Assembly (NCBI RefSeq): GCF_016903815.1
Contig: NZ_CP069973.1
Source of the DNA: Escherichia coli
Lineage (GTDB): Bacteria; Pseudomonadota; Gammaproteobacteria; Enterobacterales; Enterobacteriaceae
Reading direction: 5' to 3' (one strand)
DNA length: 64,000 nucleotides
Shown here: one piece after another, positions 7,002 to 8,331 of the stretch
Layout of the letters: each line of letters opens with the position of its first letter
How positions within the stretch are numbered: position 1 is the stretch's first letter
Notes under the pieces: model-generated
Databases searched by the model: none
Seen by the model: only the letters and a program-made list of their open reading frames with translations
What the model was told of the DNA's origin: nothing
Position numbers and translations under genes: made by a program

Positions 7002-8051
7002 TTACGCCAGTACGCCAATTGTCAGCGCGCGATCGATAAAACGAAATATCAGCTCCAGTTGGGAGCCATACTTATCTTCAAATGCCACTGTATCCGTATG
7101 CAGCTCGTTGTGATGCTTTCTGCACAAAGGCAACACAAAGAGATCATGTGCTTTTGTTCCCATTCCGCCCTGCCCGTGACCAATCAGATGATGCGGATCG
7201 TCGGCTGGCATACCGCAGCAAGCACACGGCTGTGTCTTAACCCAACGTGTGTATTTCTCCTTAACCCAGCGGCGACGTTTAGGCAGCTTCATGAAAGATT
7301 CCGGAGACTCTGGATCAACGGTGATGCTTACCACCGTCTTTTCCTGTGGTGATTTTTGTTGCTGGTGGGCGTAAGGCAACGGTGCAAGATTTTTTGTGCG
7401 TTGTTTCAATATGCTGGTGGCGGTCTGCTCTCCCGGTACGATGTCGCTTTCGCGGTACACCGAGCAGATTTTTTCCGCTGGTAATCCCAGCGAACGACGC
7501 GATACAGCCTCAGGTAGTGCATCCACCACCTGATTGCAGACCGCCCACCAGGATAATTCAGCCAAAGATAATTCCCGCTCCTGCGTACCGCTTATTGCGT
7601 GACGGATGACGTCAATCACCCATGCTGTCAGATTTTGTTGAGCAAGCAGCTCCAGTGATTCCGATGTCTGGTCACGCAGTTGGTTGTCGCAGTGCCAGCA
7701 CAACACCATTGCGCCGGTACCATAACGGTGAATGACTGTTTCAGTGTGATGGTAATCGCCATTAGGCCACTGGCAGGATGTAACATGACGTAATAGCCAG
7801 TCGGACAATGCGCCAACGCCGCCAGCAGCACGAATCACCCGTTCGTTACTAAAAAACGGCAGCAATGTTTTGTCTTCCGCCAGCGGCTGGCGAACGGCAG
7901 GAACGACTCCGGATGGCAGATTACGCATGCTTTTTGGTTCCGGTTCCACCAGCACTCGAGGATTATGAAATATCTGTATGGATTCACGGCCCGGCTTAAG
8001 GACCACCAGCCCAAGCTCAGGCACCAGAACAGGTCTAAGTAATACCCGCAC
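7002..8051 (-). CDS. ydfU: DUF968-type prophage protein YdfU (349 aa from GTG start)
   Basis: ORF 7002..8090; GTG at 8049-8051 is preceded by GGAGG; C-terminal CxxC…HH motif. Confidence 0.7.
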   Translation of the reverse strand: MRVLLRPVLVPELGLVVLKPGRESIQIFHNPRVLVEPEPKSMRNLPSGVVPAVRQPLAEDKTLLPFFSNERVIRAAGGVGALSDWLLRHVTSCQWPNGDYHHTETVIHRYGTGAMVLCWHCDNQLRDQTSESLELLAQQNLTAWVIDVIRHAISGTQERELSLAELSWWAVCNQVVDALPEAVSRRSLGLPAEKICSVYRESDIVPGEQTATSILKQRTKNLAPLPYAHQQQKSPQEKTVVSITVDPESPESFMKLPKRRRWVKEKYTRWVKTQPCACCGMPADDPHHLIGHGQGGMGTKAHDLFVLPLCRKHHNELHTDTVAFEDKYGSQLELIFRFIDRALTIGVLA

Positions 8052-8052
8052 G

Positions 8053-8331
8053 TTACCTCCAGATCCGTTGCTGGAAAGTGCGGGACGCACGTGGTGGGCG
8101 TTCGGAATAAGGCAGCCTGACAGAGATTATCCAGTGCCGATAGTCGAGACTGAGAGCTTTCTTAACCTCGAACCCGCGCCTGCGGTAAGAATGAATCAGC
8201 CATTCGGCCTGTTCTGCAGTGCATGGAGGGTGCTGGAACCATTCAGACTTGAATGCGTGAGAATACCGCCCGTGCGTGCAGGCAAGAACGGGCGAATTAT
8301 CAGAATTGTAATATTTTGCGTTGCGTGCCAT
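8053..8331 (-). CDS. Hypothetical prophage protein (92 aa)
   Basis: Stop codon lies 1 nt from the GTG start of ydfU, suggesting translational coupling; no recognisable motif. Confidence 0.4.
   Translation of the reverse strand: MARNAKYYNSDNSPVLACTHGRYSHAFKSEWFQHPPCTAEQAEWLIHSYRRRGFEVKKALSLDYRHWIISVRLPYSERPPRASRTFQQRIWR

Follow-up and report, generated by a model that had tools for sequence, protein, structure and literature searches.

A conserved 92-codon gene abutting ydfU in a Qin-type prophage of Escherichia coli and its likely translational coupling to ydfU

Introduction

In the classical cases of translational coupling, such as the coat and replicase genes of phage MS2 and the ribosomal-protein and trp operons of Escherichia coli, a hairpin masks the start of the downstream gene. 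The downstream Shine-Dalgarno (SD) sequence and start codon are paired within the upstream coding region, and the upstream stop codon lies next to the codon at which translation restarts. A second point of reference is the ninR region of phage lambda, reportedly described by Kroeger and Hobom in 1982 as a chain of interlinked genes with overlapping or abutting stop and start codons. The interval from the replication genes to the antiterminator gene Q holds short genes in head-to-tail order, whose stops and starts overlap or lie 1-2 nucleotides (nt) apart, which implies coupled translation. A literature search on translational coupling in nin regions returned no directly relevant open paper. 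In this study, we analysed a stretch of 64,000 nt from an E. coli genome (assembly GCF_016903815.1, contig NZ_CP069973.1; hereafter the window), in which an open reading frame (ORF) of 92 amino acids (aa) ends one nucleotide before the gene ydfU.

Judged by its conservation, the 92-aa ORF is a genuine small gene that is conserved among lambda-like phages. Its translational coupling to ydfU appears to be the most likely mechanism by which ydfU is started, and as a whole we consider this explanation likely, though unproven. The locus shares with the classical systems the adjacency of stop and restart codons and, by prediction, the pairing of a downstream SD sequence and start codon with the upstream coding region, but differs from them in that its structure is supported by prediction and conservation, without covariation. 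It shares with the lambda ninR chain the compact head-to-tail arrangement, but lambda has no detectable homologue of the small gene.

The region of the window concerned is a Qin-type prophage of an IAI1-like E. coli; positions 7000-11105 differ from K-12 MG1655 by two bases, both within ydfU. All features described here lie on the minus strand. The small gene (8053-8331 with its stop codon) runs in the ORF listing from an ATG at 8331-8329 through 92 codons to a TAA at 8055-8053. A single base, C at 8052, separates this stop from the GTG at 8051-8049, from which ydfU (7002-8051) extends over 349 codons to its stop at 7004-7002 (7005-8051 translated, 349 aa). Across the junction the minus strand reads ATC TGG AGG TAA C GTG CGG GTA, and the ydfU frame is +1 relative to that of the small gene. 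The original prediction, which had placed the end of a 92-aa ORF at 8053-8055 and a GGAGG-preceded GTG at 8049-8051, one nucleotide past the stop, was accurate in these points, the GGAGG being found at 8060-8056.

Conservation of the small gene

Geometry of this kind is by itself weak evidence, since a longer chance ORF of 137 aa (7978-8391, plus strand) lies antisense to the small gene. The 92-aa ORF could likewise be a chance or shadow frame in an untranslated leader of ydfU, as might be suspected from the reference annotation of K-12, which has no gene there, and from the greater length of the opposite-strand ORF. This reading was tested by conservation in nine distinct homologous loci, whose small proteins are 63-100% identical, and it is not supported. 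The frame is open in all nine, the sole length difference being a 6-nt in-frame indel, and it is the only frame that is open throughout. The plus-strand 137-aa ORF, in turn, is interrupted by stops in six of the nine loci and was rejected as a shadow ORF.

The pattern of substitution is that of a coding sequence. Pairwise Nei-Gojobori ratios of non-synonymous to synonymous substitution rates (dN/dS) are 0.13-0.43, and variable alignment columns are distributed over the three codon positions as 30:34:70 in the whole gene. The low dN/dS together with this third-position excess indicates that the small gene is under purifying selection. The excess is carried by codons 31-65 (9:13:30) and codons 66-92 (4:2:17); the ratio in the core is 13:15:47, with third positions making up 47 of 75 variable sites. 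The first 30 codons are nearly neutral (17:19:23), a flatness that would suit a shadow frame, yet they never gain a stop codon.

At the protein level, a search with the 92-aa sequence returned 129 clusters at E ≤ 0.001, nearly all of 90-92 aa, from E. coli, Shigella, E. albertii and E. marmotae, with identities down to 58-65%. Phages of ten or more genera carry homologues that are 30-48% identical, and AlphaFold predicts a confident core. With all this on the other side, we regard a shadow frame as extremely unlikely. The original prediction had itself proposed a check of the frame by conservation, which the frame survives: no homologous locus has lost it, and its length stays at 90-92 aa. It had also taken the coupling as support for the ORF being a gene. 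The conclusion is correct, and it is conservation that proves it; the argument from coupling runs in the weaker direction, as the junction fits a gene that is real on other grounds.

No ATG, GTG or TTG occurs between codon 1 and codon 45 of the window ORF, so the ATG at 8331 is the only sensible start. Six nucleotides upstream of it lies an SD-like GGAGA (8338-8342), which is kept as GGAGA in four of the nine loci and reads AGAGA in the other five. The start region of the small gene (8320-8350, minus strand) is strongly structured as well, with a predicted opening cost of 18.2 kcal/mol; GUGCCA appears to be pairable with UGGCAC across the gene's own SD sequence, which would leave GGAGA looped out and the ATG partly covered.

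Start of ydfU

YdfU matches PF06147 (DUF968) with E = 2.6e-76 and 255.9 bits, against a gathering cut-off of 27.8. DUF968 belongs to the His-Me finger superfamily (PMC5714182), and the 349-aa product can thus be described as a protein with a His-Me-finger nuclease domain. The phrog_96 profile aligns with it end to end, over residues 1-349, and on the K-12 map the GTG at 8051 coincides with the annotated start of ydfU (b1560) at 1644304.

Variation among the nine loci supports the same start. Past the GTG, variable sites fall into the ydfU frame as 5:3:8 in nt 1-60, then as 8:7:28 and 10:5:25 in the stretches that follow. Upstream of it, in the final 81 nt of the small gene, variability sits at the second positions of the ydfU frame (2:17:4). 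The codon periodicity therefore passes into that of ydfU where the two genes meet, which supports the GTG start and the length of exactly 349 aa that had been predicted for ydfU. Independent support comes from Citrobacter phage Chris1, whose YdfU homologue, 56% identical, lies behind rusA instead of the small gene and starts with an ATG at the aligned position. Its N-terminus reads MRALLKPV, compared with (V/M)RVLLRPV in YdfU, and the first 41 residues are conserved. In Chris1 (1504-3103 of the extracted locus) the order is small gene, rusA, ydfU-like gene, as opposed to small gene, ydfU, rusA, and the ATG of the YdfU homologue lies in an ATGA overlap with rusA.

Two other starts deserve mention. 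The longest ORF listed in the ydfU frame runs from a GTG at 8090, which would give 362 aa and an overlap of 38 nt with the small gene, and the record of phage Tritos annotates a shorter YdfU from an ATG 34 codons in. The GTG at 8090 has no SD sequence and is kept in two of the nine loci, being GTC or GCC in the other seven; the 2:17:4 pattern also runs against a ydfU reading frame in this stretch, and the 362-aa version was rejected as not conserved and of the wrong periodicity. Against both starts, the phrog_96 and phrog_11007 profiles align from residue 1-2, and the 41 N-terminal residues are conserved as far as the Citrobacter homologue. A start of ydfU elsewhere than at 8051 is, in our judgement, very unlikely. 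The Tritos start (2781-2883 of the extracted locus), 34 codons past the conserved GTG, is probably mis-called.

Junction and probable translational coupling

The ribosome-binding site of ydfU lies inside the coding sequence of the small gene, since the GGAGG at 8060-8056 consists of codons 91 and 92, TGG AGG, which encode the terminal Trp-Arg. The 13-nt junction TGGAGGTAACGTG is identical in all nine loci, and because this identity holds although their small proteins diverge by up to 37%, the arrangement is not due to chance. The GGAGG is predicted to form a duplex of 6 base pairs with the anti-SD sequence (-10.6 kcal/mol, the same in the nine loci), and a spacer of 4 nt (TAAC) separates it from the GTG. 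The usual distance from SD sequence to start codon is 5-9 nt, so this spacer is short; both a 4-nt spacer and a GTG start codon are suboptimal for initiation de novo.

When 51 nt around the junction are folded, a hairpin of -19.3 kcal/mol is predicted (8045-8084; z = -1.98, with 6 of 200 shuffled sequences folding as well), the 5' arm of which is formed within codons 83-87 of that gene's upstream partner, the small gene. Its outer helix would pair CCCGCAC (codons 83-85) with GUGCGGG, the ydfU start codon and the four bases that follow, and would bury the GTG; its inner helix would pair UUUCCAG with CUGGAGG and bury the SD sequence. Each of the nine loci is predicted to fold in this way, with energies of -15.6 to -19.3 kcal/mol. 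Opening the ydfU start (-18 to +12) would cost 18.4 kcal/mol, the highest value among the ten verified starts compared, with 5.3-14.1 kcal/mol for the eight neighbours rem, hokD, relE, relB, ydfT, ydfV, flxA and cspB. This comparison leaves out essQ and ydfR, which did not fall on start codons, and cspF, which fell on TTG and not ATG, the K-12 offset being probably invalid there.

As the 5' arm of the hairpin lies within the last codons of the small gene, coupling is plausible, and its steps may be sketched as follows. The small gene lies with ydfU and the gene of the Q antiterminator in a single transcription unit. The TGG AGG at its end supplies the SD sequence for ydfU, and a predicted hairpin, with the other arm inside the final codons of the small gene, would hold this sequence and the GTG closed. 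On reading the last dozen codons, a ribosome would melt this hairpin and terminate one nucleotide from the GTG, whereupon either the same ribosome would restart or a fresh 30S subunit would start at the GTG beside the stop. Under this mechanism YdfU would be synthesised chiefly while the small gene is being translated. The original prediction had already spoken of translational coupling; the geometry on which it relied is correct, and the coupling itself is drawn from that geometry and from the predicted hairpin. To specialists in phages or in translation, a junction of this ordinary, coupling-type form will hold no surprise.

Two observations weaken the case for such a role of the hairpin. 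First, its arms are invariant, so that compensatory substitutions and covariation are not seen, and the inner helix is made less stable by the few substitutions it has. Second, in a context of 121 nt the fold is no better than those of shuffled sequences (z = -0.33). The lack of covariation would also suit a simpler account, according to which the small gene is genuine but ydfU does not depend on it: free 30S subunits would initiate at the GGAGG of ydfU, and the 1-nt spacing would reflect compact packing of genes. The strong match to the anti-SD sequence would allow this, and tight junctions are the rule in these nin regions whatever the gene pair. However, the SD sequence and the GTG would have to be reached inside the -19.3 kcal/mol hairpin, at the locally highest opening cost, and across a spacer and from a start codon that are both poor for de novo initiation. 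We therefore consider independent initiation unlikely, although a good deal less so than the alternatives dismissed above.

A programmed +1 frameshift of the prfB type at AGG-TAA-C, which would fuse the small protein to YdfU, was also considered. The +1 frame of ydfU and an SD-like element immediately before the stop codon give the site a superficial likeness to that of prfB. However, AGG in the P site cannot re-pair in the +1 frame (GGU), and the SD sequence abuts the site instead of lying 3 nt upstream of it. Moreover, no fused protein of about 440 aa occurs among 129 plus 531 homologues, and the same cassette precedes unrelated genes at a 2-nt spacing, with a different frame relation. Frameshifting has virtually no chance of being the explanation, and coupling through termination and restart remains the reading that we prefer.

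Homologues in other phages

A tblastn search over phage genomes found homologues of the small gene in 59 records. At least 14 of these are Escherichia phages with the 90-92-aa form, and the remaining records come from phages of Salmonella, Klebsiella, Cronobacter, Citrobacter, Yersinia, Edwardsiella, Hafnia, Erwinia and Pantoea; named carriers include Gifsy-2, SPN3UB (Salmonella), PY54 (Yersinia), mEp237, phiES15 and GF-2. In the records from outside Escherichia the protein has 65-68 aa and is 30-48% identical to the core. Residues 27-92 of the window protein match the entire phrog_1212 profile (positions 1-66 of 66; E = 1.7e-35). The length of that family, about 65-68 aa, is exceeded in the 90-92-aa Escherichia subgroup by an N-terminal extension. 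Members of phrog_1212 such as STM1021.1n of Gifsy-2, gp51 of mEp237, ORF47 of PY54 and Orf QD1 of N15 resemble the window protein in their nin position upstream of a nuclease gene and Q and in a common C-terminal tail, PRPSRxxQQxxW[GR], but lack the fast-evolving segment of 24-26 residues at the N-terminus of the Escherichia form. In every distant phage inspected, the homologue lies in the nin (early-right) region, after genes of the NinB/YbcN type and before a nuclease gene and Q.

The 3' end of the gene follows the same pattern in these relatives. In ten distant phages the small gene ends in Trp-Gly or Trp-Arg, encoded by TGG GGG, TGG AGG or TGG AGA, so that a purine-rich, SD-like run is built into the end of the gene. 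In eight of the ten, all with one of these three endings before the stop, the next gene begins 1-2 nt past the stop or overlaps it, and it encodes a YbcO-like HNH nuclease, NinG, RusA or a small hypothetical protein. The exceptions are PY54, with a gap of 48 nt, and the N15-like PhiR46_1, with a gap of 23 nt. On sequence grounds, then, the end of the gene in distant phages looks like a portable cassette of SD sequence and restart site, in keeping with the interlinked genes of the lambda ninR region, and the family illustrates neatly how the end of a small phage gene serves as the ribosome-binding site of the gene that follows.

Rho-dependent termination

In the window and in E. coli relatives the gene order is rem, small gene, ydfU, (rusA), Q. 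The next gene upstream of the small gene is rem (8398-8649), at a distance of 66 nt, and no terminator-like hairpin was found between rem, the small gene and ydfU. Termination by Rho is another matter, as ydfU is listed among the K-12 prophage genes with the strongest Rho-dependent terminators upstream (PMC9160355), in a study whose supplement plots 'untranslated sequences' for all genes studied. We found that the RNA of the small gene is richer in C than in G. In 78-nt windows the excess (C minus G) is 6 to 14% between about 8420 and about 8190 and once more between about 8160 and about 8035, and it falls to -5% around 8215-8110. The rem RNA, by contrast, is G-rich. A Rho loading site probably lies within the coding sequence of the small gene. 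If so, either the ORF is poorly translated in the resident prophage or its translation competes with Rho. Studies that regard the sequence before ydfU as an untranslated leader with a strong Rho terminator (PMC9160355) should allow for a coding sequence there.

These data also bring in a further explanation, namely that the family is real and the Qin copy is a silent relic, in which Rho stops transcription, the ORF is untranslated, and the junction has no current role. The strong upstream terminator and the C-rich RNA are as expected of it, and the copy is identical in K-12 and in the window strain, so it carries no signal of selection in situ. Against it, the frame is intact, as are those of ydfU and ydfT. 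We give the silent-relic explanation a substantial but lesser chance; it is compatible with a coupling of the gene to ydfU once antitermination allows the operon to be expressed. In the ribosome-profiling preprint of Weaver et al., which deals with proteins of ≤50 aa and was searched for 'prophage' and 'rem', the lone mention of the Qin prophage names only YnfU.

One could combine these elements into a single scheme, in which the small gene ends in a portable cassette for coupling that moves with the gene by mosaic recombination and drives translation of any nin gene placed behind it, and in which, in Qin, translation of the ORF masks the C-rich Rho site, so that the ORF would act as a switch for the ydfU nuclease and Q. 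Taken as a whole, we regard this scheme as doubtful.

Properties of the small protein

The small protein has a mass of 11.1 kDa and is basic, with an isoelectric point of 10.2 overall and 10.5 for the core. Residues 1-26 form a variable extension, predicted to be disordered and specific to Escherichia. In the AlphaFold model, based on an alignment of 22 sequences, the N-terminus is disordered, with predicted local distance difference test (pLDDT) values below 50 for residues 1-23. The core is a confident beta-alpha-beta-beta arrangement, with mean pLDDT values of 91-94 in ten-residue blocks over residues 31-70, and is followed by a C-terminal helix. A Foldseek comparison with viral models gave a single significant match, to the homologous Orf QD1 of N15 (E = 4e-4).

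Neither Pfam nor NCBIfam assigned a family to the 92-aa protein or to three distant homologues (in Pfam, none at E ≤ 1), and the Pfam models of lambda NinD, NinE and NinF do not match the small protein. A profile search of PDB sequences gave no relative, apart from one spurious match to the MS2 coat protein (E = 0.0056, with no stretch passing). From its charge and its neighbours, one might guess that the small protein is a nucleic-acid-binding accessory of the recombination nucleases of the nin region. This guess is weakened by the downstream neighbour, which is not constant. A strict functional partnership with DUF968 was rejected on the same ground, the gene behind being YbcO-like, ninG, rusA, a methyltransferase gene or an exoVIII gene.

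Annotation and minor observations

The gene is already catalogued, in annotations by the Prokaryotic Genome Annotation Pipeline (PGAP), in UniRef and in PHROGs, and its absence from the K-12 reference is an omission of annotation. PGAP lists the ORF as hypothetical protein WP_012304870.1 in strain IAI1, with the same 1-nt gap to ydfU, and also annotates it in a prophage of O157:H7 at about 80% DNA identity. The exact ORF sequence is present on at least 1000 contigs, with the UniRef name 'Prophage protein', and the region is matched in 4331 of 5426 complete E. coli genomes. In the curated record of K-12 MG1655 (NC_000913.3), nothing is annotated between ydfU (b1560) and rem (b1561), although the DNA is identical. 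The gene omitted there is complement(1644306..1644584), which corresponds to 8053-8331 of the window, and adding it would be a simple fix for the annotation of the K-12 reference genome.

Annotation of the homologues in phage records is uneven. In Pantoea phage PA-1 (1501-1698 of the extracted locus) and in LR597641.1 and LR597642.1, a tblastn homologue is present and no gene is annotated. In phage vB_EcoS-689R5 the homologue (2501-2779 of the extracted locus) is named 'toxin to Rem', and the complementary strand is annotated with a 'mobile element protein'; our search found no literature basis for either label. The Salmonella enterica homologue (P0124, 96 aa) contains an internal tandem duplication of about 28 residues over the helix region, in which HHHDCTTEQADTLISDYQKRG occurs twice. 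Finally, collinearity with the K-12 Qin prophage ends at position 11106 of the window, and at this point IAI1 carries a transposase fragment of the ISEsa1 family beside ydfW.
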